Positions 2,690 to 54,149 of a stretch of 64,000 nucleotides of DNA are shown one piece after another (within the stretch, counting starts at the first letter, position 1; each line of letters starts with the position of its first letter). The DNA is from Escherichia coli. Its GTDB lineage: Bacteria; Pseudomonadota; Gammaproteobacteria; Enterobacterales; Enterobacteriaceae. The notes below the pieces were generated by a model that was not told the DNA's origin, ran no database searches, and saw only the letters and a list, made by a program, of their open reading frames with translations. The position numbers and the translations under genes were made by a program. The stretch is taken from the NCBI RefSeq assembly GCF_003334305.1, contig NZ_QOWS01000021.1. One strand, written 5' to 3'.

Positions 2690-5648
2690 CCTTAATCGCG
2701 TCATCGGATGGTCTGGTTTACTGCTGACGTCTTTATTGAGTACCAGCGCACTCGCAGACAATATCGGCACCAGCGCAGAAGAGCTGGGGCTGAGCGATTA
2801 TCGCCATTTTGTTATTTATCCCCGTCTCGATAAGGCGCTGAAGGCACAGAAAAATAACGACGAAGCAACCGCCATCCGCGAATTTGAATATATACACCAG
2901 CAGGTGCCGGATAATATTCCGCTGACTTTATACCTTGCGGAAGCCTATCGCCATTTTGGTCATGATGACCGGGCGCGGCTGTTGCTTGAGGATCAACTGA
3001 AACGTCACCCAGGAGATGCCCGACTTGAGCGCAGTCTGGCGGCTATTCCGGTTGAAGTGAAAAGCGTTACGACTGTTGAAGAACTGCTTGCCCAGCAAAA
3101 AGCGTGCGACGCTGCGCCGACCCTGCGTTGTCGCAGTGAAGTCGGGCAGAATGCCCTGCGGCTGGCACAATTACCTGTCGCCAGAGCGCAACTGAACGAT
3201 GCGACGTTTGCTGCATCGCCAGAAGGAAAAACGCTGCGAACCGATCTGCTGCAACGGGCAATCTACCTGAAACAATGGTCCCAGGCAGATACGCTATACA
3301 ATGAAGCACGCCAGCAGAACACATTAAGCGCGGCAGAACGCCGTCAGTGGTTTGACGTGCTTCTTGCCGGGCAGCTGGACGATCGGATCCTGGCACTGCA
3401 ATCACAGGGGATCTTCACCGATCCTCAGTCATATATTACTTACGCGACCGCGCTGGCTTATCGTGGCGAAAAAGCACGCCTCCAGCATTATCTCAATGAA
3501 AATAAGCCGCTGTTTACCACGGACGCACAAGAGAAAAGTTGGCTCTATCTGTTATCTAAATACAGCGCCAACCCCGTTCAGGCATTGGCGAATTATACGG
3601 TGCAGTTTGCCGATAACCGCCAGTATGTTGTTGGCGCGACGCTACCGGTGCTGTTAAAAGAAGGTCAGTACGACGCAGCGCAAAAACTGCTCGCCACCCT
3701 CCCCGCCAATGAAATGCTTGAGGAGCGTTATGCTGTCAGCGTGGCGACCCGTAACAAGGCTGAATCTCTGCGTCTGGCACGATTGCTGTATCAGCAAGAA
3801 CCGGCAAATCTTACCCGCCTGGATCAACTGACCTGGCAACTGATGCAGAACGAGCAGTCACGCGAAGCTGCCGATTTATTGCTGCAACGCTATCCTTTCC
3901 AGGGCGATGCGCGTGTCAGCCAGACTTTAATGGCGCGACTGGCGTCTCTGCTGGAAAGTCATCCTTACCTGGCAACGCCGGCGAAGGTGGCGATTTTATC
4001 GAAACCCTTACCGCTGGCGGAGCAACGTCAGTGGCAAAGTCAGTTGCCGGGTATTGCAGATAATTGCCCGGCAATAGTTCGCTTGCTGGGCGATATGTCG
4101 CCTTCCTACGATGCTGCCGCCTGGAACCGTCTGGCAAAGTGTTATCGGGACACGCTACCCGGTGTGGCGCTGTATGCATGGCTTCAGGCCGAACAACGAC
4201 AACCGAACGCCTGGCAACATCGTGCGGTAGCCTATCAGGCGTATCAGGTTGAGGACTACGCCACCGCACTGGCGGCCTGGCAGAAAATCAGTCTTCACGA
4301 CATGAGCAATGAGGATCTGCTTGCTGCTGCCAATACCGCCCAGGCGGCAGGAAATGGTGCAGCTCGCGATCGCTGGCTACAACAGGCAGAACAACGTGGA
4401 CTGGGAAACAATGCCCTCTACTGGTGGCTGCATGCGCAACGTTACATTCCTGGTCAGCCGGAACTCGCACTGAGCGATCTCACGCGCTCAATCAATATTG
4501 CGCCTTCTGCCAACGCTTACGTTGCGCGGGCGACAATTTATCGCCAACGTCATAATGTCCCGGCGGCGGTGAGTGATTTGCGCGCCGCGCTGGAACTGGA
4601 ACCGAATAATAGCAACATCCAGGCAGCGCTTGGTTACGCCTTGTGGGATAGCGGTGATATCGCACAGTCGCGGGAAATGCTCGAACAGGCGCATAAAGGG
4701 CTTCCGGACGATCCGGCACTGATCCGACAACTGGCCTACGTGAACCAGCGTCTGGATGACATGCCTGCGACGCAGCACTACGCCCGGCTGGTGATTGATG
4801 ACATTGATAATCAGGCGCTGATAACCCCACTGACCCCAGAGCAAAATCAGCAACGCTTCAATTTCCGCCGTTTGCATGAGGAGGTCGGTCGCCGCTGGAC
4901 GTTCAGTTTCGATTCTTCTATCGGCTTGCGTTCCGGGGCAATGAGCACCGCTAACAATAATGTCGGCGGCGCAGCGCCAGGGAAAAGCTATCGTAGCTAC
5001 GGGCAACTGGAAGCCGAGTACCGCATCGGACGCAATATGCTGCTGGAAGGCGACCTGCTCTCAGTTTATAGCCGCGTCTTTGCCGATACCGGAGAAAACG
5101 GGGTGATGATGCCGGTGAAAAATCCGATGTCCGGCACCGGTCTGCGCTGGAAGCCGCTGCGCGATCAGATCTTTTTCCTCGCCGTCGAACAGCAGTTGCC
5201 GCTGAACGGGCAAAATGGCGCATCCGATACCATGCTGCGCGCCAGCGCCTCATTCTTTAATGGCGGCAAATACAGCGACGAATGGCACCCGAACGGTTCA
5301 GGCTGGTTTGCCCAAAACCTGTACCTCGATGCGGCGCAATATATCCGCCAGGATATTCAGGCGTGGACGGCAGATTATCGCGTCAGCTGGCATCAGAAGG
5401 TAGCTAACGGACAGACTATTGAGCCTTACGCTCACGTTCAGGACAACGGCTATCGTGATAAAGGCACTCAGGGCGCGCAGCTTGGCGGAGTCGGGGTCCG
5501 CTGGAATATCTGGACCGGCGAGACGCACTACGACGCCTGGCCGCACAAAGTCAGTCTCGGCGTCGAGTATCAACATACCTTTAAGGCGATTAATCAACGT
5601 AACGGAGAGCGCAACAACGCGTTTCTCACCATTGGAGTGCACTGGTAA
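2676..5648 (+). CDS. nfrA: Outer membrane protein NfrA (phage N4 adsorption protein A), TPR-rich, 990 aa
   Basis: ORF 2655-5648; internal Met at codon 8 gives a signal-peptide-like N-terminus (MKENNLNRVIGWSGLLLTSLL); synteny with nfrB. Confidence 0.85.
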   Translation: MKENNLNRVIGWSGLLLTSLLSTSALADNIGTSAEELGLSDYRHFVIYPRLDKALKAQKNNDEATAIREFEYIHQQVPDNIPLTLYLAEAYRHFGHDDRARLLLEDQLKRHPGDARLERSLAAIPVEVKSVTTVEELLAQQKACDAAPTLRCRSEVGQNALRLAQLPVARAQLNDATFAASPEGKTLRTDLLQRAIYLKQWSQADTLYNEARQQNTLSAAERRQWFDVLLAGQLDDRILALQSQGIFTDPQSYITYATALAYRGEKARLQHYLNENKPLFTTDAQEKSWLYLLSKYSANPVQALANYTVQFADNRQYVVGATLPVLLKEGQYDAAQKLLATLPANEMLEERYAVSVATRNKAESLRLARLLYQQEPANLTRLDQLTWQLMQNEQSREAADLLLQRYPFQGDARVSQTLMARLASLLESHPYLATPAKVAILSKPLPLAEQRQWQSQLPGIADNCPAIVRLLGDMSPSYDAAAWNRLAKCYRDTLPGVALYAWLQAEQRQPNAWQHRAVAYQAYQVEDYATALAAWQKISLHDMSNEDLLAAANTAQAAGNGAARDRWLQQAEQRGLGNNALYWWLHAQRYIPGQPELALSDLTRSINIAPSANAYVARATIYRQRHNVPAAVSDLRAALELEPNNSNIQAALGYALWDSGDIAQSREMLEQAHKGLPDDPALIRQLAYVNQRLDDMPATQHYARLVIDDIDNQALITPLTPEQNQQRFNFRRLHEEVGRRWTFSFDSSIGLRSGAMSTANNNVGGAAPGKSYRSYGQLEAEYRIGRNMLLEGDLLSVYSRVFADTGENGVMMPVKNPMSGTGLRWKPLRDQIFFLAVEQQLPLNGQNGASDTMLRASASFFNGGKYSDEWHPNGSGWFAQNLYLDAAQYIRQDIQAWTADYRVSWHQKVANGQTIEPYAHVQDNGYRDKGTQGAQLGGVGVRWNIWTGETHYDAWPHKVSLGVEYQHTFKAINQRNGERNNAFLTIGVHW

Positions 5649-7483: not shown

Positions 7484-7528
7484 AGGGCAAAGCGGAAACG
7501 GATAAGACGGGCATAAATGAAGAAGAAA

Positions 7529-7573
7529 TGGCGCGCCCTGCAGGATTCGAACCTGCGGCCCACGACTTAGAAG
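7529..7573. repeat. attL: 45-bp partial copy of the tRNA-Arg 3' end (pauD-like remnant)
   Basis: tggcgcgccctgcaggattcgaacctgcggcccacgacttagaag is identical to 54073-54117; coordinates approximate. Confidence 0.85.
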
Positions 7574-7995: not shown

Positions 7996-8949
7996 ATGCG
8001 GGCGAAACTTCTGGGAATAGTTCTGACAACCCCTATTGCGATCAGCTCTTTTGCTTCTACCGAGACTATATCGTTTACTCCTGACAACATAAATGCGGAC
8101 ATTAGTCTTGGAACTCTGAGCGGAAAAACAAAAGAGCGCGTTTATCTAGCTGAAGAAGGAGGCCGAAAAGTCAGTCAACTCGACTGGAAATTCAATAACG
8201 CTGCAATTATTAAAGGTGCAATTAATTGGGATTTGATGCCCCAGATATCTATTGGGGCTGCGGGCTGGACTACTCTCGGCAGCCGAGGTGGCAATATGGT
8301 CGATCAGGACTGGATGGATTCCAGTAACCCCGGAACCTGGACAGATGAAAGTAGGCACCCTGATACACAACTCAATTATGCCAACGAATTTGATCTGAAT
8401 ATCAAAGGCTGGCTCCTCAACGAACCCAATTACCGCCTGGGACTCATGGCCGGATATCAGGAAAGCCGTTATAGCTTTACAGCCAGAGGTGGTTCCTATA
8501 TCTACAGTTCTGAGGAGGGATTCAGAGATGATATCGGCTCCTTCCCGAATGGAGAAAGAGCAATCGGCTACAAACAACGTTTTAAAATGCCCTACATTGG
8601 CTTGACTGGAAGTTATCGTTATGAAGATTTTGAGCTAGGTGGCACATTTAAATACAGCGGCTGGGTGGAAGCATCTGATAACGATGAGCACTATGACCCA
8701 GGAAAAAGAATCACTTATCGCAGTAAAGTCAAAGACCAAAATTACTATTCTGTTGCAGTCAATGCAGGTTATTACGTAACACCTAACGCAAAAGTTTATG
8801 TTGAAGGCGCATGGAATCGGGTTACGAATAAAAAAGGTAATACTTCACTTTATGATCACAATGATAACACTTCAGACTACAGCAAAAATGGTGCAGGCAT
8901 AGAAAACTATAACTTCATCACTACTGCTGGTCTTAAGTACACCTTTTAA
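7996..8949 (+). CDS. ompT: Outer membrane protease OmpT (omptin), 317 aa
   Basis: Full-length match to the OmpT sequence as recalled (MRAKLLGIVLTTPIAISSFA…TTAGLKYTF). Confidence 0.95.
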   Translation: MRAKLLGIVLTTPIAISSFASTETISFTPDNINADISLGTLSGKTKERVYLAEEGGRKVSQLDWKFNNAAIIKGAINWDLMPQISIGAAGWTTLGSRGGNMVDQDWMDSSNPGTWTDESRHPDTQLNYANEFDLNIKGWLLNEPNYRLGLMAGYQESRYSFTARGGSYIYSSEEGFRDDIGSFPNGERAIGYKQRFKMPYIGLTGSYRYEDFELGGTFKYSGWVEASDNDEHYDPGKRITYRSKVKDQNYYSVAVNAGYYVTPNAKVYVEGAWNRVTNKKGNTSLYDHNDNTSDYSKNGAGIENYNFITTAGLKYTF

Positions 8950-9135: not shown

Positions 9136-10620
9136 ATGCGAAAAATAATCACTCATTTCAAAGTTGTTTTAACGTTACTTCTACCAGTAACCGTATCTGC
9201 CCAGCAGATACAGTGGCAATCCTGTATGGCCAGTCAATTCAACCACTGGTTTGGTGAGGAAAAACCGTCTCCTGACTTACTATGTGGTTATTTGTCTGTT
9301 CCATTAAAATATACAGACACAGGCGGAGATGCTTCTTATGAAAAAAAATCACAAGTCAAACTAGCGTTGACAAAATTGCCGGCAAAAAGCAAGCATAAAG
9401 GAAGTATCCTGATAATAAGTGGTGGTCCCGGGTTACCAGGCATAAATCCTTATATTAACTTTGACTGGCCAGTCACAAATCTTCGTGAGTCATGGGATAT
9501 TATTGGATTTGATCCTCGAGGCGTCGGACAGTCCACTCCGACAATAAACTGCCGGCAATCAGATACAGAGACTCAGGAAAACATAACCGAAAAGCAACAA
9601 GTATTAAATAAAATTAATGCCTGTATCCATAATACCGGAGCCGAAGTCATTCGCCATATCGGCTCTAACGAGGCTGTATACGATATTGATCGTATTAGGC
9701 AAGCCTTGGGGGATAAACAACTGACAGCCGTGGCGTATTCGTATGGAACTCAAATTGCAGCCTTATATGCAGAACGTTTTCCCTACAACGTAAGATCTAT
9801 CGTTCTTGATGGAGTCGTCGATATCGATGACCTGGAGGACAACTTCACATGGCAACTCAAACAGGCACAGAGTTATCAGGAAACGTTTGATCGCTTTGCA
9901 TCCTGGTGTGCGCGTACAAAAAGTTGCCCGCTTTCTTCAGACAGAGATAAGGCAATAACTCAGTTCCATGAGCTATTATCAAAATTACATCACAAACCTT
10001 TATTAGACAGTAAGGGAGAAAATATATCTTCAGATGAACTCATATCATTAACAACAGACCTTCTGCTATGGCGTTCATCATGGCCAACCCTTGCAACTGC
10101 CATACGCCAGTTCTCTCAGGGGATTGTCAGTAATGAAATTGAAACTGCGCTCAGTGCTCCGATAGCCTCAGAAGAGTCAAGCGATGCTTCGGGGGTAATC
10201 CTCTGTGTAGATCAGGGGGATGAGCAATTAACACCAGAAGAGCGAAAATCCCGAAAAGACGCTCTTGCGAATGCCTTCCCGGCTATTAACTTTGACAATG
10301 GACGTTCCGATTCACCTGATTTTTGTGAATTATGGCCAATACATAGCGACCTGAACAAAACTCGCCTGAAAAATACTGTTCTGCCCTCTGGTTTACTGTT
10401 TGTAGCACACAAATACGACCCAACAACGCCCTGGATTAATGCCCGTAAGATGGCAGAGAAATTTTCCAGCCCGTTACTAACAATAAATGGTGATGGGCAT
10501 ACATTAGCTCTCACCGGAGTTAATTTATGTGTAGATAAAGCAGTTGTACATTACCTGATCACTCCACAAAAAATAGAAAATATATACTGCCCAGGAAATT
10601 CTGAAGCAGAAATACAATAA
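9136..10620 (+). CDS. Secreted alpha/beta-hydrolase-fold peptidase-like protein (S33 / tripeptidyl-aminopeptidase-like), 494 aa
   Basis: Signal peptide (…VTVSA|QQ), GGPG and Ser-nucleophile-like AYSYGTQ motifs; AT-rich; sits where appY is in K-12. Confidence 0.55.
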   Translation: MRKIITHFKVVLTLLLPVTVSAQQIQWQSCMASQFNHWFGEEKPSPDLLCGYLSVPLKYTDTGGDASYEKKSQVKLALTKLPAKSKHKGSILIISGGPGLPGINPYINFDWPVTNLRESWDIIGFDPRGVGQSTPTINCRQSDTETQENITEKQQVLNKINACIHNTGAEVIRHIGSNEAVYDIDRIRQALGDKQLTAVAYSYGTQIAALYAERFPYNVRSIVLDGVVDIDDLEDNFTWQLKQAQSYQETFDRFASWCARTKSCPLSSDRDKAITQFHELLSKLHHKPLLDSKGENISSDELISLTTDLLLWRSSWPTLATAIRQFSQGIVSNEIETALSAPIASEESSDASGVILCVDQGDEQLTPEERKSRKDALANAFPAINFDNGRSDSPDFCELWPIHSDLNKTRLKNTVLPSGLLFVAHKYDPTTPWINARKMAEKFSSPLLTINGDGHTLALTGVNLCVDKAVVHYLITPQKIENIYCPGNSEAEIQ

Positions 10621-10692: not shown

Positions 10693-10803
10693 ATTATTGT
10701 ATGAAATCGTCTCATGTACACGGTCCTTTTTTCGCCGAAAACTGATATTACTTTAATCAAAAGTTGACGTGCCAGATTCGAAGTAAATTTATAAAATATC
10801 AAA

Positions 10804-11109
10804 TCAATATACATTTTGCACCTTCGAGATAGTAATGACTGTTACTGTAACATGAGTTACAAACAGCTTCATACCCAGAGCTACTGATGTATCAACTCGA
10901 TTCAACAATACCCGATATTTATTCCATGCCTCCAGCAACGATCTTTCTTCCTCCGTTGCGATTTCCAGATCTACAGCATCCTGCAGTGGCGCAATATACT
11001 CACTGAATTCCTGGATGTAGAACTGTGTGGTGACGGTCTTCCAGCCATTCGGCTCCTGCTGTATCGAAGCATACCAGGCTATTTCAATATCGCTATGCTG
11101 CGGCAGCAT
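10804..11109 (-). pseudogene. Tail fibre assembly protein C-terminal remnant (tfaX-like)
   Basis: Translation contains the conserved Tfa motif [37 protein letters not shown] with no N-terminal domain; about 110 nt is a direct repeat of 13690-13800. Confidence 0.7.
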
Positions 11110-11165
11110 TTAACCCCTTGTAATTCATCGCCATAATTGATTTAATTCACAAATAAAACTATAAC

Positions 11166-12931: not shown

Positions 12932-13522
12932 ATGTCTCGAATTTTTGCTTACTGTCGGATATCAACGCTGGATCAGACCATCGAAAATCAACGCAGGGAA
13001 ATCGAAAGTGCAGGTTTTAAAATCAAACCTCAGCAAATAATCGAAGAACACATTAGCGGCTCAGCAGCAACCAGTGAGCGTCCTGGTTTTAACCGGTTGC
13101 TTGCTCGCCTGAAATGTGGTGATCAATTGATTGTGACAAAACTGGATCGCCTTGGTTGTAATGCAATGGATATCAGGAAAACAGTGGAACAACTGACCGA
13201 AACAGGTATCAGAGTGCATTGCTTAGCATTGGGGGGCATTGACCTGACCAGTCCAACAGGAAAAATGATGATGCACGTAATTTCAGCAGTCGCTGAATTT
13301 GAACGAGACCTTTTACTTGAACGCACTCATTCCGGGATAGTAAGAGCCCGCGGCGCAGGGAAACGTTTTGGTCGACCACCTGTGTTAAATGAAGAACAGA
13401 AACAGGTGGTATTCGAACGAATTAAGTCAGGTGTAAGTATAAGTGCCATTGCCCGGGAATTCAAAACCTCGCGGCAAACCATTTTAAGAGCCAAAGCAAA
13501 ACTTCAGACACCTGACATATAA
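12932..13522 (+). CDS. pin: Serine recombinase / DNA invertase (Pin/Gin/Hin family), 196 aa
   Basis: N-terminal resolvase catalytic motif (YCRISTLDQ) and C-terminal HTH; strong similarity to e14 Pin as recalled. Confidence 0.9.
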
Positions 13523-13619: not shown

Positions 13620-14195
13620 CTACGGCAGTGCTGGCCATTCAATATCCTGTGCAGTTGACGTATCAACACGGTTCAGCAACACCCGATACTTTTTCCAGGC
13701 TTCCAGCAATGAGGTTTCTTCCTCCGTTGCGATTTCCAGATCTACAGCATCCTGAAGTGGCGCAATATGCTCACTGGCTACCTGCATCAGGCTGTTTTTT
13801 GTTTCTTCCGCCTCTCGGATCCGGAACAGTTTTTCTGCTTCTGCATCTTTCACCCAGGCTGTGCCGTTCCACTTCTGAAACTCCCCTTCCGGCGATAACC
13901 AGGTAACATTTTCCGGTAACGGACCGAGTTCAGAAATAAATAACGCGTCCCCTGACGCTACGTCATAAACCGTTTTACCCCGATGGTCTTCAACGAGATG
14001 CCACGATGCCTTATCACTGTTGAAAACAGCCACAAAGCCAGCAGGAATATCTGGTGGTGCAATATCGGTACTGTTTGCTGGCAGACCTGTATGAGGCGGA
14101 ATATATGCGTCACCTTCACCAATAAATTCATTAGTTCCGGCCAGCAGATTATAAATTTTTATGGTCCGTGGTTGTTCACTCATTCTGAATGCCAT
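13620..14195 (-). CDS. tfa: Tail fibre assembly protein Tfa, 191 aa
   Basis: Conserved Tfa C-terminal motif; immediately downstream of the side tail fibre gene. Confidence 0.85.
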
Positions 14196-17087: not shown

Positions 17088-17687
17088 TCAGAACTTATAA
17101 CCGACACCCACGATGAAACCGTCAGTGCGCCAGTCGCCACTGCCGGAGCCTTCATAAGCAATATCAATGGCCACGGATTCGGTCGGGTTAAACTGCACGC
17201 CAGCTCCCCACGCCAGAGACGTGTTGCTGTGGCGACCGTCATCACTTCCGGTCAGCACGTCGTGCGTTTTCCCCTTGTTGTCAGTTACGCGGAGATAATC
17301 CCCGGAGAAAGTCGACACACGGCTGTAAGCCACACCCGCCATCGCATACGCGCTGAACCATTCATTCACGCGCACAGACGGCCCCGCCATTACGCTGAAC
17401 CAGCGGTTACGAACGGAATCTTCATGCCAGCGAGTATCGCTGTAATGGGTCAGTTGGCGATTCTTGTCTCCTGCATAGCTGAATGACGTCACCAGCCCCA
17501 GCGTATCCGTAAACTCATAACGGTATTTCACGTTAATCCCGTTCAGATCATCACTGCCGGGAACGTTGGTCCGGGCATGAAGATACCCCGCGCTCAGCGT
17601 GGACTGATGTTCAGACGCCCATGCAGGCGCACCGGATACGGCCAGACAAATGGCTGCGGACAAAATGGCGGCACAAACTTTACGCAT
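17088..17687 (-). CDS. lom: Lom outer membrane protein (Ail/Lom family), 199 aa
   Basis: Signal peptide plus beta-barrel-like sequence ending …VGVGYKF; directly downstream of J as in lambda. Confidence 0.85.
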   Translation of the reverse strand: MRKVCAAILSAAICLAVSGAPAWASEHQSTLSAGYLHARTNVPGSDDLNGINVKYRYEFTDTLGLVTSFSYAGDKNRQLTHYSDTRWHEDSVRNRWFSVMAGPSVRVNEWFSAYAMAGVAYSRVSTFSGDYLRVTDNKGKTHDVLTGSDDGRHSNTSLAWGAGVQFNPTESVAIDIAYEGSGSGDWRTDGFIVGVGYKF

Positions 17688-36871: not shown

Positions 36872-37066
36872 ATGTCAACGAAGAACAGAACCCGCAGAAC
36901 AACAACCCGCAACATCCGCTTTCCTAACCAAATGATTGAACAAATTAACATCGCTCTTGAGCAAAAAGGGTCTGGGAATTTCTCAGCCTGGGTCATTGAA
37001 GCCTGCCGTCGGAGACTAACGTCAGAAAAGAGAGCATATACATCAATCCAAAGTGATGATGGATGA
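36872..37066 (+). CDS. Small hypothetical protein near cos (lambda right-end ORF equivalent), 64 aa
   Basis: ORF in a region colinear with the lambda right end. Confidence 0.4.
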   Translation: MSTKNRTRRTTTRNIRFPNQMIEQINIALEQKGSGNFSAWVIEACRRRLTSEKRAYTSIQSDDG

Positions 37067-37427
37067 ACATCCCGGTTTCTTCCACCATCGCACCGGAAAA
37101 GCGACTATGAGGGTAACCCTGCGTCTGTCAGCACAGTAAAACCCGGTGTGCATCGTTTTTGATTATTCCCGCACACTCACGCAGAAGGAATTCCCCGTCG
37201 GGCTACGGTCATGGTTAATGCGGGAATACGGCGACGATACAGCGCAGCTAAAAGGGTAATGGACAGATAGAGCGGTTTATTTCATTCCACAGGATTCTGA
37301 GTGCCCCCCCCTCCTCCAATAGGCTGAGCATCCACCTATATAGTTTTAATTTTCATCAATCCATTTAACTATCGTTTAATTGTTGTCACATAGGATTCTG
37401 CCGTTTTTAACAATGCAGGATAATAAG

Positions 37428-37721
37428 ATGAAAAAAATGTTGTTTTCTGCCGCTCTGGCAATGCTTATTACAGGATGTGCTCAACAGACGTTTACTGTTG
37501 GAAACAAACCGACAGCAGTAACACCAAAGGAAACCATCACCCATCATTTCTTCGTTTCGGGAATTGGACAGGAGAAAACTGTTGATGCAGCCAAAATTTG
37601 TGGCGGCGCAGAAAATGTTGTTAAAACAGAAACCCAGCAAACATTCGTAAATGGATTTCTCGGTTTTATTACTTTAGGCATTTATACTCCGCTGGAAGCG
37701 CGTGTGTATTGCTCACAATAA
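37428..37721 (+). CDS. bor: Bor lipoprotein (serum-resistance-associated), 97 aa
   Basis: MKKMLFSAALAMLITGCAQQ lipobox; matches lambda Bor; opposite orientation to the lysis genes. Confidence 0.85.
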   Translation: MKKMLFSAALAMLITGCAQQTFTVGNKPTAVTPKETITHHFFVSGIGQEKTVDAAKICGGAENVVKTETQQTFVNGFLGFITLGIYTPLEARVYCSQ

Positions 37722-37752
37722 TTGCATGAGTTGCCCATCGATATGGGCAGCT

Positions 37753-38214
37753 CTATCTGCACTGCTCATTAATATACTTCTGGGTTCCTTCCAGTTGTTT
37801 TTGCATAGTGATCAGCCTCTCTCTGAGGGTGAAATAATCCCGTTCAGCGGTGTCTGCCAGTCGGGGGGAGGCTGCATTATCCACGCCGGAGGCGGTGGTG
37901 GCTTCACGCACTGACTGACAGACTGCTTTGATGTGCAACCGACGACGACCAGCGGCAACATCATCACGCAGAGCATCATTTTCAGCTTTCGCATCAGCTA
38001 ACTCCTTCGTGTATTTTGCATCGAGCGCAGCAACATCACGCTGACGCATCTGCATGCCAGTAATTGCCGCGTTCGCCAGCTTCAGTTCTCTGGCATTTTT
38101 GTCGCGCTGGGCTTTGTAGGTAATGGCGTTATCACGGTAATGATTAACAGCCAATGACAGGCAGACGATGATGCAGATAACCAGAGCGGAGATAATCGCG
38201 GTTACTCTGCTCAT
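37753..38214 (-). CDS. Rz: Spanin inner-membrane subunit Rz, 153 aa
   Basis: Matches lambda/DLP12 Rz; follows the endolysin gene. Confidence 0.85.
37812..37994 (-). CDS. Rz1: Spanin outer-membrane lipoprotein Rz1, embedded in Rz in the +1 frame
   Basis: 60-aa ORF with a lipobox (VVGC) and proline-rich sequence, fully nested within Rz. Confidence 0.75.
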
Positions 38215-38708
38215 TGTTTCCCCCACAAACAGACTTCACGCTCAATCTCACGGCGAGTCATCAGTCCTTTCCATTGATTACCGCCAGCGTATGTCCAGCG
38301 CTGTAGCTGATCACATGCGCCTTTAATATCACCCTGGTTTATTTTGCGAAGAAGCGTCGATGTTCTGAAATTGCCAGCACCCACGTTGTAGACGAACGAG
38401 TAAAGAGCGCCGCGCGTTGTTTCCGGTATATCGACTTTGATGTACCGGTTAATTTGTCTGGCGACAGTTGCAAGGTCTTTATTCAGGAGGGCTTTGCACT
38501 CTGCTTCGGTATACGTTTTACCGGGAATGATGTCTTTTCCTGTATGCCCGTAACATACAGTCCATACACCAACTATGTCTTTGTAAGGATTATGTCTCAC
38601 ACCTTCCAGACCATCGTTACCACTTGGGCCAGTGATTAACACAGATGCTATAGCAATAGCCCCGCCACCAATAGCAGCAGCAACAGCTTTTCGTAATGAT
38701 GGAGGCAT
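38211..38708 (-). CDS. rrrD: SAR endolysin (phage-21-type lysozyme, RrrD-like), 165 aa
   Basis: N-terminal signal-anchor-release segment ([16 protein letters not shown]) plus T4-lysozyme-like domain; matches DLP12 RrrD as recalled. Confidence 0.85.
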
Positions 38709-38923
38709 TATTCACCTCTCGCAGCCTTGCGCTTATCTTCTTTAATCTTGAAATAAAGGTTTGTCAGGTACGTCAGCAGGCCAAATACCAGGCTACCCAG
38801 CACACCTATTGCTGCCCACTGTGAGGGCGTGACTTTATCGAGCAGCTGTAAAAACCAGTACCCGGCACTACCTGCTGAGGTGCCATAGGCGACACCCGTT
38901 GTTAACTTATCCATGGATTTCAT
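38708..38923 (-). CDS. essD: Pinholin S (phage-21-type, EssD-like), 71 aa
   Basis: Two TM segments and a charged C-terminus; immediately upstream of the SAR endolysin. Confidence 0.85.
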
Positions 38924-39032
38924 AACCCCACCTCGCAGACAAAGCGGGTGTAAATTGAGGGAATACTACGAAACGTAACAGACTCGGAGTCAGTGAATAA
39001 CTCAGGTATTGGGTTATCAGCTAATATCGAGA

Positions 39033-39068
39033 CTCAAAAAATGGAAAAACCCGCTCGACGGCGGGTTT
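39033..39068 (-). terminator. Intrinsic terminator hairpin upstream of S
   Basis: On the minus strand: aaacccgccgtcgagcgggttt followed by a T-tract; coordinates approximate. Confidence 0.5.
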
Positions 39069-39496
39069 AAGCTGTGTGACGAAGTAACCACTCTTAACAG
39101 CATAACCAATTTTTTACGTACGTAAACCACTAAATGATATTTGCGAGAATGCTACCGAGTATTGAAAACACCACTACAAATACATAAGCAAATCTCAACA
39201 AATAACCAACAAATAATTTCCAGCGTTATTTTTAGCCAATTTAAATTGAACCTTCAAATTATAGAGCACTTATAAATAACAGCCATTAATATAAATTGGC
39301 TAATAGATTTATTTTTATTCAGCCAAGAGCCATGAATAGGATTCGATAGAAAAAAGTTCAGATAAAAATAGAGATCTACTTCACAAATTAAACGAGAAAC
39401 CAAAACTTACATCTTGAAATAATCACATTGATTAGATGAATATTTATCGCGCAGTGACATCATTTTTTAATAATAGTTCAAAAAAAAGGGCTCACG

Positions 39497-40579
39497 ATGA
39501 AAAAATTAACAGTGGCAATTTCTGCTGTAGCTGCATCAGTACTGATGGCGATGTCTGCTCAGGCAGCTGAAATTTATAATAAAGACAGTAACAAGCTGGA
39601 TCTGTACGGGAAAGTTAATGCTAAGCACTACTTCTCCTCTAATGATGCAGATGATGGTGATACTACTTATGCCCGTCTTGGCTTCAAAGGTGAAACCCAA
39701 ATCAACGATCAACTGACTGGTTTCGGTCAGTGGGAATATGAATTCAAAGGCAACCGCGCTGAATCTCAAGGTTCCTCCAAAGATAAAACCCGTCTTGCCT
39801 TCGCTGGCCTGAAATTCGGTGACTACGGCTCCATCGATTATGGCCGTAACTACGGTGTAGCATACGATATTGGTGCATGGACCGACGTTCTGCCAGAATT
39901 CGGTGGCGATACCTGGACCCAAACAGATGTATTCATGACTGGTCGCACCACAGGTGTTGCAACTTATCGTAACAACGACTTCTTTGGTCTGGTTGATGGC
40001 CTGAACTTTGCAGCTCAGTATCAGGGCAAAAATGACCGAAATGAAGTAACTGAAGCTAATGGCGATGGTTTCGGTTTCTCAACTACTTATGAGTATGAAG
40101 GATTCGGCGTGGGTGCAACCTATGCTAAATCTGATCGCACTAATAATCAGGTTATCTACGGTAACAACGGTCTGAATGCTTCTGGTCAAAATGCTGAAGT
40201 ATGGGCAGCTGGTCTGAAATATGATGCGAACAACATCTATCTGGCCACCACCTATTCTGAAACCCAGAACATGACTGTTTTTGGTAATAACCATATTGCC
40301 AACAAAGCACAAAACTTCGAAGCTGTTGCACAATATCAGTTCGACTTCGGCCTGCGTCCATCCGTTGCTTACCTGCATTCTAAAGGAAAAGACTTGGGTG
40401 TTTGGGGTGATCAGGACCTGGTTGAATATGTTGATGTAGGTGCAACCTATTACTTCAACAAAAATATGTCCACTTTTGTTGACTACAAAATCAACCTGAT
40501 TGATAAGAGCGATTTCACGAAAGCATCTGGCGTTGCTACCGATGATATCGTTGCTGTAGGTATGGTTTACCAGTTCTAA
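39497..40579 (+). CDS. nmpC: Prophage-encoded general porin (NmpC/Lc, OmpC/OmpF family), 360 aa, apparently intact
   Basis: Signal peptide, porin beta-barrel sequence ending …VGMVYQF; located between Q and the lysis genes as in DLP12. Confidence 0.9.
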
Positions 40580-40594
40580 TTTGATTACTAAAAG

Positions 40595-40650
40595 ATATGT
40601 TGTGGGAGGCTTTGCCTCCCCAACATATAAGTGGCTCCCTCAAGCCACTT
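40595..40650. terminator. Two adjacent hairpins downstream of the porin gene (candidate bidirectional terminator / tR')
   Basis: 15-bp inverted repeat atatgttgtgggagg…cctccccaacatat followed by a second hairpin aagtggct…agccactt; coordinates approximate. Confidence 0.45.
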
Positions 40651-40715
40651 CCTTTAGAAGCACAACCTTGCTTCTAACTATACAAACCTTCTGTTATATA
40701 TTACCCTTTATTTTT

Positions 40716-40742
40716 GGGGGCGTTTCAACGCCCCATTTTTAA
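40716..40742 (+). terminator. Rho-independent terminator (plus strand)
   Basis: ggggcgtttcaacgcccc followed by TTTTT; coordinates approximate. Confidence 0.55.
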
Positions 40743-40767
40743 TAACTTTTAGTAAATAATTGGCGTA

Positions 40768-41151
40768 TTAATTAGAGTTATTAACAACGATATCCATCTC
40801 TAACCGGATATCTAATGCCATTAACATCCCTTCAATTATGCCCTCAGCCTTTTGTAACCTTTTCCCGATATAACCATCAGAGCAGCAATGCTTACCTGCC
40901 AGTGACATGAATGTCATACCGACTACATAATAATCTACTAATAAATCGTGCAAATCGCTGTTGTTCTTTTTCAGACGGGCCATGCACCCGCAAATGATCA
41001 TCGCGTCATCGTCACAACATTGCGGGCGAGATTTTACTTTTGAAGGAATTAATCCCTTAAAACCGGCGGCAATGGACGACCAGGTCACATCTTCATGATT
41101 ATTAGCCGCCCACGCTCCCCAACGCTCAAGAACCATCTGAATATCACGCAT
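40768..41151 (-). CDS. quuD: Late-gene antiterminator Q (QuuD-like), 127 aa
   Basis: Matches DLP12 QuuD as recalled ([21 protein letters not shown]…). Confidence 0.85.
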
Positions 41152-41236
41152 CAACTTACTCCACAAAAATCAGACCAGAACGCCAATTACAAGCAAAAAT
41201 CAACAAAACAGTATTAGTTGATTGTTATCTCTGACT

Positions 41237-41377
41237 TCATACTCCTGCTCCTGTCAGTGTTTTGGCGTAATTCTTCAGTATTCGGTAATCGGTCAAAACA
41301 GAACCGGGGAAACGATATAAGCGCAGGCGCACCCAGCGGCGGCGAAGACGCTCTGCCATATAAGACTCAAACATCAT
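41237..41377 (-). CDS. ylcG: Small protein YlcG-like, 46 aa
   Basis: Manually translated ([46 protein letters not shown]); ATGA overlap with the rusA stop; coordinates approximate. Confidence 0.55.
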
Positions 41378-41736
41378 TCATCTCCCAGTTCGGTGATGGT
41401 CAGTTCCAGCCTCCCACCTTTGGTAACAGGCATCTTCACAACGCGGTAATCAACGACCTGAGCATCATCCAGCCAGAAACCTGCTTTGGTGAGTGCGTCA
41501 AAAGCGGCTTTTTGCAGATTATCCAGGTCACGGCGACGGCGATCCGGCATGTGGCACTCAATACGGATTTTCACTGGCATAGCCAGGCCGATATCCAGCA
41601 TTGCGTTTTTAATGATTCGGGTGACGTTATCGCGGTATGCCTGCCCTTCTGCGCTGATGTGTGTGCGCCCGCGATTATGGCGGTAATAGCGGTTATTGCT
41701 CGGAGGCCAGGGTAATGTGATGCTGTAGGTATTCAC
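41374..41736 (-). CDS. rusA: Holliday junction resolvase RusA, 120 aa
   Basis: Matches RusA as recalled. Confidence 0.9.
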
Positions 41737-42023
41737 GCCTTAATAACCCCCTCTTTCAGCCAGATAACCTGCGTTCTCGCCATACCTTCCAGCGCGCATT
41801 CTTTTGCATACTCAGCATCGACAAAATATGTGCGGCGGTCGATTTCGTCGTGACAGGCAGAACATGCAATGGTGGCAATCAGGTCTGGCGGTTTGATACC
41901 GGTACCGCACAATCCAGCCAGCCGGATATGTGCCAGTACTGACGTTTCAGGATTGCCATTACATACGCCAGGGATTCTTACCTGGCATTCCCGACCACGC
42001 GCTGCTTTTCTCAAATCAGCCAT
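41733..42023 (-). CDS. ybcO: YbcO-like putative nuclease, 96 aa
   Basis: Internal Met gives [16 protein letters not shown]… with Cys-rich motifs; DLP12 gene order. Confidence 0.75.
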
Positions 42024-42186
42024 GATTCCTCCTTGCTGCCAGTCGCAACCATTTTTTATCAACCAGGCTAGCGGTATATCCGAGCAGTGTTGGTATTTCG
42101 GATGGCTTCAGCTCAGGCTTACGCTTACGACGATTTGATACTCTGTAGATGTGCCCGTTCATGACACGAATAAGCGGTGTAGCCAT
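42016..42186 (-). CDS. ninE: NinE-like protein, 56 aa
   Basis: Manually translated ([56 protein letters not shown]); start overlaps the ybcN stop; coordinates approximate. Confidence 0.55.
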   Translation of the reverse strand: MATPLIRVMNGHIYRVSNRRKRKPELKPSEIPTLLGYTASLVDKKWLRLAARRNHG

Positions 42187-42641
42187 TACGCCTCCTGCTT
42201 ATCGCGCAGCTGCTGGTATTCACAGCTCTGCGGAATTGTCAGGTGGCAGCCGATATTCATCGCCCAGGCTTCGACTTTGCACAGGAAGATGTACATCTCG
42301 CCGGTTTCCAGCTCTGACGTATGGCGGAGGGATTGGACGGTGGTGACCTCGCCGGACACGACATCTACACGGTCTTTGCTTTCGTAGCCGAGATAGGTGT
42401 GCTTCATCGCGTCTTTGACCCACTCAGGCGTAGCGAAGGTCTTGCCGCGGGCGATGAGATATTCGCTGATCTCCGTGTACCACATGTGGCTGAGCGCGTT
42501 CTGCGACAGGCTGCGCTTCTCGCGCCACGGCTTAACCTGCAGGCGTAAGCATTGCCCGGCATCCAGCAATGGCTGAATCTGCTGGCCGATGGCCGCGAAG
42601 TTACCGCGATGGAGTTTGATGCCGTCTACTGGCAGAGTCAT
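42186..42641 (-). CDS. ybcN: YbcN-like nin-region protein, 151 aa
   Basis: Same size and position as DLP12 ybcN; function not assigned from sequence. Confidence 0.6.
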   Translation of the reverse strand: MTLPVDGIKLHRGNFAAIGQQIQPLLDAGQCLRLQVKPWREKRSLSQNALSHMWYTEISEYLIARGKTFATPEWVKDAMKHTYLGYESKDRVDVVSGEVTTVQSLRHTSELETGEMYIFLCKVEAWAMNIGCHLTIPQSCEYQQLRDKQEA

Positions 42642-42905
42642 ACGGCCTCCCTAACGGAAACCGCAGAATGCAGAAAATCGCAGGTGCATTTCTGCATCTG
42701 TGACAAGGTGATGAGTTCAGATTGTGGTCGCATTTAAGTCCCCTTAAATGCGCAGAAGTCACCGGAGTTGTTCAGGCTCCGATGAGAGGATTATGGCGGA
42801 TTGATTACGATAAATCAAAACTATCTTGAAGCCAAAACAGTGATCTTCGCTTTAAAAACCTTGTATACTTTCACCTAATCACAGCCAGAACTATGGATCT
42901 AACCA

Positions 42906-43283
42906 ATGACCAACAAAGAAAACAAAGATAAATATATTAACAAGTTCAAGAAAGAGCTTTCAAAATATATACAACCAACTGCTGGAGTGGACATTCAATT
43001 ATTTAACTCTAAGGATGGTGGTGGTGTAATTAAAGCCACTTTGAATAGAAGTGGAAAAAGAAAATCATCTATTGCAGGTAATTTTACTAAATTAGGTGAG
43101 GCAATTACCTCGAGTGGGCAGAGGGTTTTTGGTGGTGATCTATCAAATGTAAATTTTTACGGAACAAATACGATTTTTGATGGAGATACAATATTTTTAA
43201 TTAAATCACCTGATTCAGAGGAGTGGTCATCACAAAAAGCTTCCAAAGACGTAGAGGGCATCGTATTTGGAGGGAAAAAATGA
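42906..43283 (+). CDS. Hypothetical small soluble protein, 125 aa (first gene of an AT-rich reverse-oriented cargo pair)
   Basis: ORF on the strand opposite to the flanking early genes; Lys/Gly-rich; no recognisable motif. Confidence 0.5.
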   Translation: MTNKENKDKYINKFKKELSKYIQPTAGVDIQLFNSKDGGGVIKATLNRSGKRKSSIAGNFTKLGEAITSSGQRVFGGDLSNVNFYGTNTIFDGDTIFLIKSPDSEEWSSQKASKDVEGIVFGGKK

Positions 43284-43708
43284 TTAACATTACTACTAAG
43301 GATGGCACTCAAGTCAGTGGTGAAGTAAGAGATCTAGTAATTCTTCTTGAAACTGATGGAAAAACGGTGTCTGATTATTTGCAGCCAATCCCTCCCAAAA
43401 AAGATACACACTGGAGCATGATTTTCATTCCGGTAGCAATTTATATACTACTTAATCTTGTATACATTATTGCTCACCCATTATTTCCTGAAAAATATCT
43501 AAAAACATCAACATCTATATTTCTATTCATTTCCTTCATATTAAGTGCAATAGTAGCATATTTTGTTTTCCATAAGCATAAATCTGCCACTCTATCCATA
43601 TGCAGCTTAGTGTTCTTAGTGTTAATTGTAGGTGCTAACGTAGGGTTTATCAGTTACAGCGACCTAACACAAAAAGCGACGCAAAAATTAGATAGTTTGT
43701 CTAAATAA
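43280..43708 (+). CDS. Hypothetical membrane protein with about 3 TM helices, 142 aa
   Basis: ATG preceded by GGAGGG; ATGA overlap with the upstream gene; three hydrophobic stretches of about 20 aa. Confidence 0.5.
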   Translation: MINITTKDGTQVSGEVRDLVILLETDGKTVSDYLQPIPPKKDTHWSMIFIPVAIYILLNLVYIIAHPLFPEKYLKTSTSIFLFISFILSAIVAYFVFHKHKSATLSICSLVFLVLIVGANVGFISYSDLTQKATQKLDSLSK

Positions 43709-46380: not shown

Positions 46381-46420
46381 TGTTTTGACCATCAATACGC
46401 AAGCGTATAAATTAAAACTT

Positions 46421-47113
46421 ATGAAAAAAGAAACTCTTGCTGATCGCTTAAATCTAGCGATGGAACAATCTGGAATGTCTCAAGGCGCTCTTGCAAAGGC
46501 GTCTGGCGTAGCTCAACCCACAATCTGGAGACTGACAAGCGGCAACGCGCGCGGCTCAACAAAAATTGTTGAAATAGCTAATGCATTGGGTGTTCGAACA
46601 GAATGGCTCTCTTCAGGCATAGGCCCGATGAGAAATGACGGTCAACAATCAGGGAAGCCTGCTGTCAGCCATTCCAAATACTTCAAAATTGACGTTCTTG
46701 ATATAGAAGTCAGTGCCGGGCCGGGTGTAATCAACCGTGAGTTTGTAGAAGTTCTACGCTCGGTTGAATACTCGTTTGACGATGCTCGTCACATGTTCGA
46801 TGGCAGGAAGGCGGAAAATATCCGCATCATTAACGTGCGTGGTGACAGCATGTCAGGAACGATCGAACCAGGTGATCTGCTGTTCGTTGATATCACGGTT
46901 AAATCTTTCGACGGTGATGGTATCTATGCGTTTCTGTATGACGACACCGCCCATGTAAAACGCCTGCAAATGATGAAGGATAAGCTGCTGGTTATCTCTG
47001 ATAACAAGAGCTACTCACCGTGGGACCCGATCGAGAAAGACGAGATGAACCGCGTGTTCATCTTCGGGAAAGTCATCGGGAGCATGCCGCAGACATATAG
47101 AAAGCATGGGTAG
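46421..47113 (+). CDS. cI: CI-type repressor (HTH + S24 LexA-like peptidase domain), 230 aa
   Basis: N-terminal HTH (MSQGALAKASGVAQPTIWRL) and C-terminal S24 region (VRGDSMSGTIEPGDLLFVD…KRL). Confidence 0.85.
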   Translation: MKKETLADRLNLAMEQSGMSQGALAKASGVAQPTIWRLTSGNARGSTKIVEIANALGVRTEWLSSGIGPMRNDGQQSGKPAVSHSKYFKIDVLDIEVSAGPGVINREFVEVLRSVEYSFDDARHMFDGRKAENIRIINVRGDSMSGTIEPGDLLFVDITVKSFDGDGIYAFLYDDTAHVKRLQMMKDKLLVISDNKSYSPWDPIEKDEMNRVFIFGKVIGSMPQTYRKHG

Positions 47114-47242: not shown

Positions 47243-48382
47243 ATGGCAGCGGTTGAATTTCAATTGTCTAGGAAGATGATTGATTGGATAGCAAATTCTC
47301 AAGGAGTTTCTATCGAAACTCTTGCTGACCAAGTCATGCCCAAAAAGATTAATAAATTTCTTAACGGAGTGGTAAGTAAATCCGCAGCAGAAAAACTGGC
47401 AAAAATTGGAGGAATCCCTTTCGGTTTTTTATTTCTTGAAACGCCACCAACTCCAGCCAAACCCAAGATCCCTGACTTAAGGCAAGCTATAAATAGCCGT
47501 GAGTTAGGAAAAGATTTTTTTGATGTTTACTATGATATAGAATATAAACTTGAGTGGTACAAAGACTATTTAAGAGAAAATGGTAATGATGATCCACTCG
47601 ATTTTATTGGTAAATTTAAATTTAATAGAAAATTAAATTATAAGGTTGTTGCTACAGACATAGCAAACACAATACATTTTGATATACAAAAAGAGATAAA
47701 AAATGTCACTTTTGAGAGCTATTTTTCTAAAGTGGCAAAACTAATAGAAGACACTGGCGTATTAGTTTTCAAGAATGGTGTTGTGGGTAATAATAATAAA
47801 AGAAAACTTGACACGCGAGAGTTTCGTGGTTTCTGTATATCTGATAGCGTTGCTCCGATCATTTTTGTAAATAGCTCGGACGCGTTATCTGCGCAGGTAT
47901 TTACATTATTTCATGAGGTGGCTCATCTTTGGCTTGGAGTCGATGGAGTCTCTGGGTGGGACACAGAAAAAAACATAGAATCTTTTTGTAATAAAGTTGC
48001 TGCTGAAATCTTAATGCCTGATAATCTCTTCAAATCTTTCTGGCTTAATGCATCCAGCGATAATAATTATTATCGAGTAAAAGAGGTTTCTAAGTTATTT
48101 AAGGTTAGTGATTTCGCTTGTGCAATCAAAGCGTTACAATTAGATTTGATAGAAAGAAACACTTTGGAGATAATTAAAGATCAAGCTTACAATAAGCCCA
48201 AAAAAGAATCCAATGGTGGTTCTTTCTTTAACACATTACCTGTTCGTAACAGTCCAAAACTTACGAATATAATAATTTCCAAAGCAATGTCTCAACAATT
48301 ACCATTAAGGGAAGCAGGCGTACTGCTAAATGTAAAAGCAGATACAGTTGTTGAATTTTATAAAAAACGAGAATCTCTATGA
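47243..48382 (+). CDS. HTH-fused ImmA/IrrE-family (M78/DUF955-like) zinc metallopeptidase, 379 aa
   Basis: N-terminal XRE-like HTH; HEXXH motif (FHEVAHLW); AGGTGA SD; AT-rich; directly downstream of cI. Confidence 0.7.
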   Translation: MAAVEFQLSRKMIDWIANSQGVSIETLADQVMPKKINKFLNGVVSKSAAEKLAKIGGIPFGFLFLETPPTPAKPKIPDLRQAINSRELGKDFFDVYYDIEYKLEWYKDYLRENGNDDPLDFIGKFKFNRKLNYKVVATDIANTIHFDIQKEIKNVTFESYFSKVAKLIEDTGVLVFKNGVVGNNNKRKLDTREFRGFCISDSVAPIIFVNSSDALSAQVFTLFHEVAHLWLGVDGVSGWDTEKNIESFCNKVAAEILMPDNLFKSFWLNASSDNNYYRVKEVSKLFKVSDFACAIKALQLDLIERNTLEIIKDQAYNKPKKESNGGSFFNTLPVRNSPKLTNIIISKAMSQQLPLREAGVLLNVKADTVVEFYKKRESL

Positions 48383-48891
48383 TTCATAATGGAAAATTCT
48401 TAATTGATAGTAATGTCTTCATAGAGGCAAAAAACTTTGCATATAACTTCAATTATTGCAAAATATTTTGGGATTTTCTTCTCGCTTTACACATTAATGG
48501 TCTGATTTATAGCATTAATGCTGTAAAAAAAGAACTATGTGCAAAAGATGATCCATTGTGTAAATGGATTAAAGAAGAGTTACCATCATCATTCTTCGAA
48601 GATGAGCATAGTTCAATAGAAAATTATGCAAAGTTAATAAATTGGTCAACTAAATTAGATGTTACCGAAAAGGCAAAGTTTGATTTTGCAAGCCATGAAA
48701 AAGCAGATGCTTTTTTAATAGCCCATGCGATGACACATGGATATACTATTATTACCCATGAGAAACCATCCGGTGGCAAACCTAAAAAAAGAATAATGAT
48801 CCCGGATGCTGCTGCTTCTCACGGCGTTAAGACATTAACACTATATGAATTTCTTCCAAGATACGCTAGTCATAATTTTTCTTTGAAATAA
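48379..48891 (+). CDS. PIN-like (possibly DUF4411-family) putative nuclease/effector, 170 aa
   Basis: ATGA overlap with the upstream gene; N-terminal strand-Asp motif (FLIDSNVFIEA) typical of PIN folds; fold assignment is tentative. Confidence 0.5.
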   Translation: MIHNGKFLIDSNVFIEAKNFAYNFNYCKIFWDFLLALHINGLIYSINAVKKELCAKDDPLCKWIKEELPSSFFEDEHSSIENYAKLINWSTKLDVTEKAKFDFASHEKADAFLIAHAMTHGYTIITHEKPSGGKPKKRIMIPDAAASHGVKTLTLYEFLPRYASHNFSLK

Positions 48892-54057: not shown

Positions 54058-54072
54058 CTGATTGAATTGTAA

Positions 54073-54117
54073 TGGCGCGCCCTGCAGGATTCGAACCTGC
54101 GGCCCACGACTTAGAAG
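54073..54117. repeat. attR core (3' 45 nt of argU), identical to 7529-7573
   Basis: Direct repeat seen in sequence. Confidence 0.85.
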
Positions 54118-54149
54118 GTCGTTGCTCTATCCAACTGAGCTAAGGGCGC
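54073..54149 (-). tRNA. argU: tRNA-Arg (anticodon UCU), argU; prophage attachment site
   Basis: Reverse complement reads GCGCCCTTAGCTCAGTTGGATAGAGCAACGACCTTCTAAGTCGTGGGCCGCAGGTTCGAATCCTGCAGGGCGCGCCA (77 nt, cloverleaf-compatible, CCA end); coordinates approximate. Confidence 0.9.

Follow-up and report, generated by a model that had tools for sequence, protein, structure and literature searches.

The closest described relatives of the locus analysed here are the lc gene of phage PA-2 and the nmpC gene of the cryptic Escherichia coli K-12 prophage DLP12. Lysogens of PA-2 lose OmpC, which is the PA-2 receptor, and the 3′ end of the lc transcript is said to mediate this loss. The ipeX sequence reportedly occupies the untranslated stretch that follows the nmpC stop codon and precedes the terminator, and the channels formed by NmpC are reportedly weakly anion-selective. 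According to reviews, IpeX is an RNA of 167 nt, found in DLP12 and PA-2, that arises from the phage porin promoter within the porin transcript, and that lowers OmpC and OmpF.

Expression of such genes has been described in several strains. In LF82, NmpC is expressed from the repressed Perceval prophage at about 10-fold above background in LB overnight culture, and in CFT073 both nmpC mRNA and protein are higher at 37 °C (thermoregulated). A role for nmpC in heat resistance was found in AW1.7, the nmpC mRNA has been reported as an sRNA target, and the title of a publication on E. coli B terms the gene 'quiescent'. An intact 'ompD (nmpC)' has been published for EAEC 042, where it was contrasted with the pseudogene of MG1655. 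The locus described below lies in a 64,000-nucleotide stretch of E. coli DNA (contig NZ_QOWS01000021.1; hereafter the window), and very probably is a lysogenic-conversion ('moron') gene, carried in intact form by a complete lambda-like prophage at argU and encoding a general-diffusion porin of the NmpC/Lc/OmpD type.

Location and Integrity of the Porin Gene

The gene sits between the late-gene antiterminator gene Q and the S/R/Rz lysis cassette (37753..38923), on the strand opposite to the late genes. The features of this region are as follows.

39497–40579, + strand: porin coding sequence, NmpC/Lc/OmpD type, 360 codons plus TAA (open reading frame list and profile matches)
39497–39565, + strand: signal peptide, 23 residues, equal to the annotated Lc sig_peptide; cleavage at AQA/AE, mature start AEIYNK
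40768–41151, − strand: late-gene antiterminator Q, QuuD type (phrog_79, 1.7e-53; quuD annotated in identical DNA)
38708–38923, − strand: holin S (PHROG match and open reading frame list)
38211–38708, − strand: endolysin R (PHROG match and open reading frame list)
37753–38214, − strand: Rz spanin (PHROG match and open reading frame list)
37812–37994, − strand: Rz1, embedded in Rz (PHROG matches and open reading frame list)

In the open reading frame list the porin frame starts with ATG, has no internal stop and ends in VGMVYQF. Its product is identical to RefSeq WP_000737263.1, a protein annotated in strains X14-3 and A7, and the gene has 100% DNA identity to annotated database genes. The Pfam profile Porin_1 is matched over its whole length (1–337 of 337) with an E value of 4e-152, so that a chance match is not an issue, and the phage protein family PHROG 410 is matched over positions 1–360 of 360 with 745 bits. 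An earlier note on this DNA had read positions 39497–40579 as a full-length porin of the OmpC/OmpF family, encoded on the strand opposite to the late operon with Q on one side and the lysis cassette on the other, and both the profile matches to the porin and the agreement of the open reading frame list with the PHROG matches bear this out.

The 1986 PA-2 record (J02580) also annotates an 'ORF1' (2428–2637, − strand) that overlaps the 3′ end of lc in antisense direction, for which the equivalent stretch of the window is ~40418–40627. The open reading frame list of the window holds no intact counterpart of at least 40 codons, and PA-2 'ORF1' is probably not a gene.

Protein Family and Pore Features

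With regard to classification, the protein passes the NCBIfam model for the OmpC subfamily (NF007841; score 515 bits, cut-off 484), and does not reach the cut-off of the NCBIfam PhoE and OmpF equivalog models. For pairwise comparison Lc was taken from the PA-2 record and NmpC was rebuilt from the K-12 gene by removing IS5B; with each of Lc and the NmpC so restored, the window protein shares 90.4% identity. In an alignment of 21 sequences its identity to Salmonella OmpD is 82%, as against 64%, 62%, 64% and 67% to the K-12 porins OmpC, OmpF, PhoE and OmpN. On these identities the window porin therefore belongs to the NmpC/Lc/OmpD subgroup, as the earlier note had proposed in calling it NmpC/Lc-type, and the alignments to NmpC, Lc and OmpD that the note had named as a check reveal no frameshift or stop. 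The name given by PGAP to the gene of this type, 'ompC: porin OmpC', is a family-level name that masks a phage-type NmpC/Lc porin.

The sequence elements that the protein needs in order to be exported, to assemble and to form a pore are all conserved. The signal peptide was assigned by identity to the sig_peptide/mat_peptide annotation of PA-2 lc, and the terminal beta-strand with its C-terminal Phe, which is the assembly signal, is present. The constriction loop L3 carries PEFGGD with D107 and E111, facing a basic cluster of K16, R37, R76 and R127, and the positions equivalent to K16, R42, R82, R132, D113, E117 and G119–D121 of the OmpF pore are all conserved. Because the protein aligns over its full length to solved porins (OmpK37, OmpC, OmpK36, PhoE and OmpF in the PDB, with residues 24–360 covered at E values of 1e-119 to 2e-135), a trimeric 16-strand fold is expected. 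An AlphaFold model built from the 21 sequences has about 16 strands at a pLDDT of 66, and the loop boundaries used below, which are taken from this model of moderate confidence, are approximate.

Selection and Allele Structure

Nei-Gojobori estimates of dN/dS over the whole gene are 0.10 against Lc and 0.08 against the allele of phage Perceval; by region, the values are 0.02–0.05 outside the predicted loops and 0.13–0.17 inside them. Since dN/dS is about 0.1 and lowest outside the loops, the gene is, by these estimates, under purifying selection and its product a maintained protein. Together with the conserved export, assembly and pore features, dN/dS values of 0.08–0.10 argue in favour of the earlier suggestion that the gene is functional. 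Of 120 IMG/VR viral contigs that share this 3′ end, 107 have a full-length porin reading frame; in a further 9 the frame runs off the fetched stretch, and no more than 4 of the 120 are interrupted.

The relationship to Lc and NmpC is uneven along the gene. The first ~345 nucleotides (~115 codons) are essentially identical to K-12 nmpC and PA-2 lc; beyond this point identity to lc and nmpC drops to 57–93% per 60-nt block, and in the flanks it returns to 96–97%. At the protein level there are 35 differences from Lc, 26 of which fall within the predicted loops L4, L5, L6 and L8, and parts of L4 and L5 resemble OmpD variants of Citrobacter and Salmonella more than Lc. At least three allele classes occur in phages: one shared by the window, ev243 and PhiR34_1 (360 amino acids), that of Perceval (360 amino acids, 94% identical), and Lc/NmpC (365 amino acids).

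Mosaicism of this kind is usual for porins and phages; among the features of the locus, it alone goes beyond the textbook description and is mildly notable. A tentative and rather speculative extension is that the 360-residue allele might be a recombinational 'loop cassette' variant, in which the promoter, the first ~115 codons and the 3′ untranslated region of Lc/NmpC were joined to L4–L8 from another lineage, and that convergent Q-dependent late transcription might switch the porin off on induction. If so, prophages would carry serotype-like variants of the porin, selected to evade phages, colicins and antibodies that recognise a particular phage-porin surface.

Prevalence of the Gene

The gene is widespread. 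At least 80% of its length is found in 2501 of 5426 complete E. coli genomes (46%), with a best genome match of at least 99% in 228 records and of 95–99% in 830, and a 2.3-kb query spanning Q, porin and S has a match of at least 99% in 199 RefSeq records. Some 40 other phage records, PA-2 among them, carry the gene at 88–99% identity (100% in ev243), and the 90% protein cluster that holds the window porin has 2741 member sequences. The window porin is thus a known, common and annotated lysogenic-conversion gene, to which the broken copy of K-12 is the exception.

The Prophage and Its Integration Site

The element that carries the porin is bounded by 47-bp repeats of the argU 3′ end.

54071–54117, with the repeat at 7527–7573: att core inside tRNA-Arg(UCU) argU (tRNA scan, exact 47-bp direct repeat, K-12 DLP12 annotation)
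54073–54149, − strand: tRNA-Arg(UCU) argU (tRNA scan), integrase adjacent

The repeats enclose 46.5 kb, and the outer limits are the same as those of DLP12 in K-12. The element occupies the DLP12 site, because DLP12 also lies at argU in K-12, with the same nin-Q-nmpC-S-R-Rz-bor order and with ompT at the far end. A near-identical record from strain A7 includes integrase, exo/bet/gam, repressor, O/P, nin, Q, porin, lysis, terminase, head, tail, J, lom and tail-fibre genes; its Q-porin-S region is a 100% match, and window positions 1–25000 match at 100% with a 132-bp length difference. By its gene content the lambda-like prophage of the window is complete, unlike DLP12. A 24-kb query (window 30000–54000) is 97% identical over 87% of its length to the induced phage PhiR68_2. 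The Q-porin-S module moves between phages, since an identical copy is also found at a different site, tRNA-Arg/intS, within a degraded prophage of strain X14-3. Phage mEp332 was considered as a porin-less comparator for the boundaries of the insertion and was set aside on finding that it also carries the porin.

Several other genes of the element were observed in passing. Two encode further outer-membrane accessory proteins, namely a Bor/Iss-type serum-resistance lipoprotein (37428–37721, + strand; phrog_260, 1e-58) and an Ail/Lom-family barrel protein (17088–17687, − strand). Beyond the tail fibres but inside the 46.5 kb lie ompT (7996–8949), an alpha/beta hydrolase, a methyltransferase and pinR. 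The hydrolase (9136–10620, + strand, 494 amino acids) lies outside the phage structural genes; its PADLOC hit, at 5.9e-57, is to the candidate model C3a206 (TAP-like protein). The PinR-type invertase (12932–13522, + strand) adjoins a tail-fibre assembly gene (13620–14195, − strand), with a partial second assembly gene at ~10800–11110, an arrangement that an invertible host-range segment may have left behind.

The immunity region encodes an ImmA/IrrE-family metallopeptidase (47243–48382, + strand, 379 amino acids; PADLOC capP at 9.8e-15, with weaker RmrA matches), the gene of which is overlapped by that of a DUF4411 protein (48379–48891, + strand) and adjoined by that of an XRE-type repressor (46385–47113); the metallopeptidase/DUF4411 pair could be an anti-repressor or a defence-type cassette. 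Between the replication genes and the nin region, two + strand frames annotated as hypothetical (42906–43283, 125 amino acids; 43223–43708, 161 amino acids with predicted membrane segments) run opposite to the surrounding phage genes. They have no PADLOC match and may constitute another accessory cassette. Within the lysis genes, Rz/Rz1 of strain A7 (NZ_CP028767, 19653–20115) are annotated as frameshifted or partial, and are intact in the window at 37753–38214.

The 3′ Untranslated Region and Late Transcription

Between the porin stop codon and Q lies a spacer of 188 bp that would be transcribed from both directions, and a further hairpin lies on the other side of the porin.

40580–40744, + strand: structured 3′ untranslated region of the porin mRNA, equivalent to the ipeX region in nmpC and lc (folding and homology)
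40717–40744, + strand: intrinsic terminator of the porin transcript, GGGGCGTTTCAACGCCCC then ATTTTTAATA (terminator scan)
39047–39068, − strand: terminator-like hairpin in the direction of the late operon, between porin and S, AAACCCGCCGTCGAGCGGGTTT then TTCCATTTTT (terminator scan)

The spacer folds at −67.7 kcal/mol, with a z score of −8.2 relative to dinucleotide shuffles. Four hairpins are found in the 3′ untranslated region (40595–40628, 40629–40650, 40654–40677 and 40717–40734), the last of which is followed by ATTTTT and matches an intrinsic terminator on the + strand in the terminator scan. From the stop codon to the T-run of this terminator is ~161 nt, compared with the 167 nt reported for IpeX, and the region is 96% identical to those of K-12 and PA-2. 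On the basis of position and of homology to K-12 and PA-2, the 3′ untranslated region corresponds to IpeX. The earlier note had spoken here of hairpin terminators: the hairpins and an intrinsic terminator are present on the + strand, and the description can be refined to a single structured 3′ untranslated region, the IpeX region. A search of Rfam with window positions 37000–43000 (E ≤ 1) gave no match to the 3′ untranslated region and one chance miRNA hit at E 0.99; absence from Rfam may only mean that no such family has been curated.

Read from the opposite strand, this stretch would form the leader of the late operon. Judging by the organisation of lambdoid phages, both that leader and the late promoter are expected within 40580–40767 (− strand), just downstream of Q, and because of this position Q-modified polymerase would have to run antisense through the porin. 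On induction it would cross 40767–38924 (− strand) to reach S, R and Rz, and would pass two terminator-like hairpins on the way to S. Besides the hairpin at 39047–39068, the minus strand has a hairpin at 40628–40595 with CTTTT after it; this hairpin, uncalled by the terminator scan, is a candidate tR′. The slot occupied by the porin is the one that the stx genes fill in Stx phages.

It has to be considered whether the selected function of the locus is mainly that of the RNA, such that the ipeX 3′ untranslated region lowers OmpC and OmpF and thereby removes the receptors of competing phages (superinfection exclusion), the porin chiefly compensating for the loss of permeability. The region is strongly structured and, across 114 viral contigs, nearly invariant with scattered SNPs only, which makes it more conserved than the coding sequence; moreover, according to reviews, IpeX is part of the porin transcript and reduces OmpC and OmpF. 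A covariation check of the four hairpins in the same 114 contigs found the region too conserved, with three informative stem changes that remain paired only in the + strand RNA, as G-U; these changes lend weak support at best to selection on the + strand RNA, and the substitutions are too few for a real test of covariation. The late-operon leader on the other strand could by itself explain the conservation, however, and the coding sequence is also strongly constrained. A primarily RNA-based function is accordingly possible but doubtful, and the reading of the locus as a porin gene acting in lysogenic conversion is preferred.

The Upstream Region and Expression

Upstream of the porin the following features were identified.

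38924–39496: AT-rich spacer between holin S and porin, 573 bp, presumably with the porin's own promoter and 5′ untranslated region
39072–39092, + strand: distal CRP-binding site, as annotated in PA-2 (21/21 identical to PA-2 1067–1087)
39368–39388, − strand: proximal CRP-binding site, as annotated in PA-2, 109–129 nt 5′ of the ATG (21/21 identical to PA-2 1363–1383)
39486–39490, + strand: Shine-Dalgarno-like AAGGG, 6 nt before the ATG (read from the sequence)

The GC content is 26–30% across 39100–39500, in keeping with the leader-like, AT-rich upstream region noted earlier, and the mean column identity of the spacer to PA-2, K-12 and ev243 is 97%. A sigma-70 consensus scan of the 573 bp found no promoter, and for this reason the positions of the promoter and the transcription start are ones that we infer. 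TTGAAA at 39414–39419 was considered as a −35 element and rejected; by eye it has no convincing −10 partner, and no start site was assigned to it.

These properties bear on the possibility that the porin is intact but effectively silent ('quiescent') under most conditions, the AT-rich upstream DNA being kept inactive by factors such as H-NS, low temperature or glucose, with no outer-membrane phenotype in ordinary culture. An upstream GC content of 26–30% is typical of silenced, horizontally acquired DNA, the consensus scan gave no promoter, the CRP sites imply glucose repression, relatives are strongly temperature-dependent, and 'quiescent' is the word used of nmpC in E. coli B, at least in a title. 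Related alleles, however, are expressed from repressed prophages as RNA and protein, in LB overnight culture and at 37 °C, and strong purifying selection and the full-length frames of 107 of 120 viral contigs argue for regular use. Silence of this kind is unlikely, and as it concerns the degree of expression it is compatible with the main explanation.

Probable Lysogenic Conversion by the Porin

The gene in the window is therefore best discussed as a lysogenic-conversion gene, a reading that the earlier note had put forward and that agrees with the established biology of Lc and NmpC, in that related alleles are expressed from repressed prophages. With regard to a moron as an independent accessory transcription unit, the gene has a terminator on its own (+) strand and AT-rich flanks and is oriented opposite to the late operon; the consensus scan gave no promoter, and the copies in K-12 and BL21 are disrupted. 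In the repressed prophage the porin would be transcribed by host RNA polymerase; in relatives, this transcription is subject to catabolite repression and is stronger at 37 °C. Porin trimers would then enter the outer membrane, while the structured ~161-nt 3′ untranslated region (ipeX region) would lower the synthesis of OmpC and OmpF. Host porins would in part be replaced by the phage porin, altering permeability and the surface presented to phages, colicins and antibodies. From the relatives we infer expression in the window strain, the start of transcription and the effect of IpeX.

It is scarcely credible that the frame is a decaying or non-functional copy, or a chromosomal ompC paralog that lies near phage genes by chance: the PGAP label 'ompC: porin OmpC' and the IS-broken counterparts in K-12 and BL21 might suggest as much, but the gene has no frameshift or stop and a dN/dS of ~0.1, lies between Q and S inside an att-bounded prophage, is packaged in identical form in cultured phages, and is 64% identical to K-12 OmpC as against 90% to Lc, so that the alignments and the genomic context rule out a pseudogene or a chromosomal paralog.

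The locus thus conforms to textbook lysogenic conversion, in which a prophage supplies a porin and the 3′ untranslated region of its transcript lowers OmpC and OmpF of the host. Such a swap of porins can alter the entry of antibiotics and nutrients, and can alter which phages, colicins and antibodies attach. The window porin implies no new biology; its practical value is one of annotation, in that carriers have an extra major porin, which is relevant to antibiotic resistance through porin loss and to phage host range.

Comparison with Known Porins and Phages

The porins of solved structure OmpK37 (6v78), OmpC (2xe2, 2j1n) and OmpF (1opf) align with the window porin over their full length. OmpC, OmpF, PhoE and OmpN of K-12 are more distant at 62–67% identity, and the external loops of the solved porins differ in length; the PDB matches of the window porin include no structure of the NmpC/Lc/OmpD type. 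OmpD of Salmonella and Citrobacter, at 82% identity, is of the same subgroup and has the same pore residues as the window porin, whereas its signal peptide differs (MKLKLVAVAV...) and NCBI records name it as a chromosomal, and not a phage-borne, porin of these genera.

In K-12, nmpC of the cryptic prophage DLP12 (qsr′) lies at the same argU site and in the same nin-Q-porin-S-R-Rz-bor order as the window porin. The MG1655 gene is split by IS5B 58 nt ahead of the stop codon, which replaces the last 19 residues and removes the terminal strand and Phe, and the earlier description of the DLP12 copy as a pseudogene is thus correct. That description had also called nmpC orthologous; the argU site is shared, the window allele is mosaic and its loops differ, and nmpC is not a strict ortholog. 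In DLP12 the porin gene is interrupted and the prophage defective, whereas in the window both are complete and the loops are those of another allele class.

Lc of PA-2 (J02580) has the same position and orientation beside the lysis genes, the same signal peptide and the same first ~115 codons. Both CRP sites are identical (21/21), the 3′ untranslated region is 96% and the protein 90.4% identical, and the window protein is 5 residues shorter. The closest match of all in the comparison with phages is ev243 (NC_049955), which has 100% nucleotide identity across the whole gene and the same Q-porin-S arrangement. Its RefSeq coding sequence (2888–3922) begins at an internal Met and is 344 amino acids long, and a 44-amino-acid 'hypothetical protein' (2779–2913) spans the true start; the internal start looks like an annotation error, and the true start is at position 2840 of that locus, as in the window.
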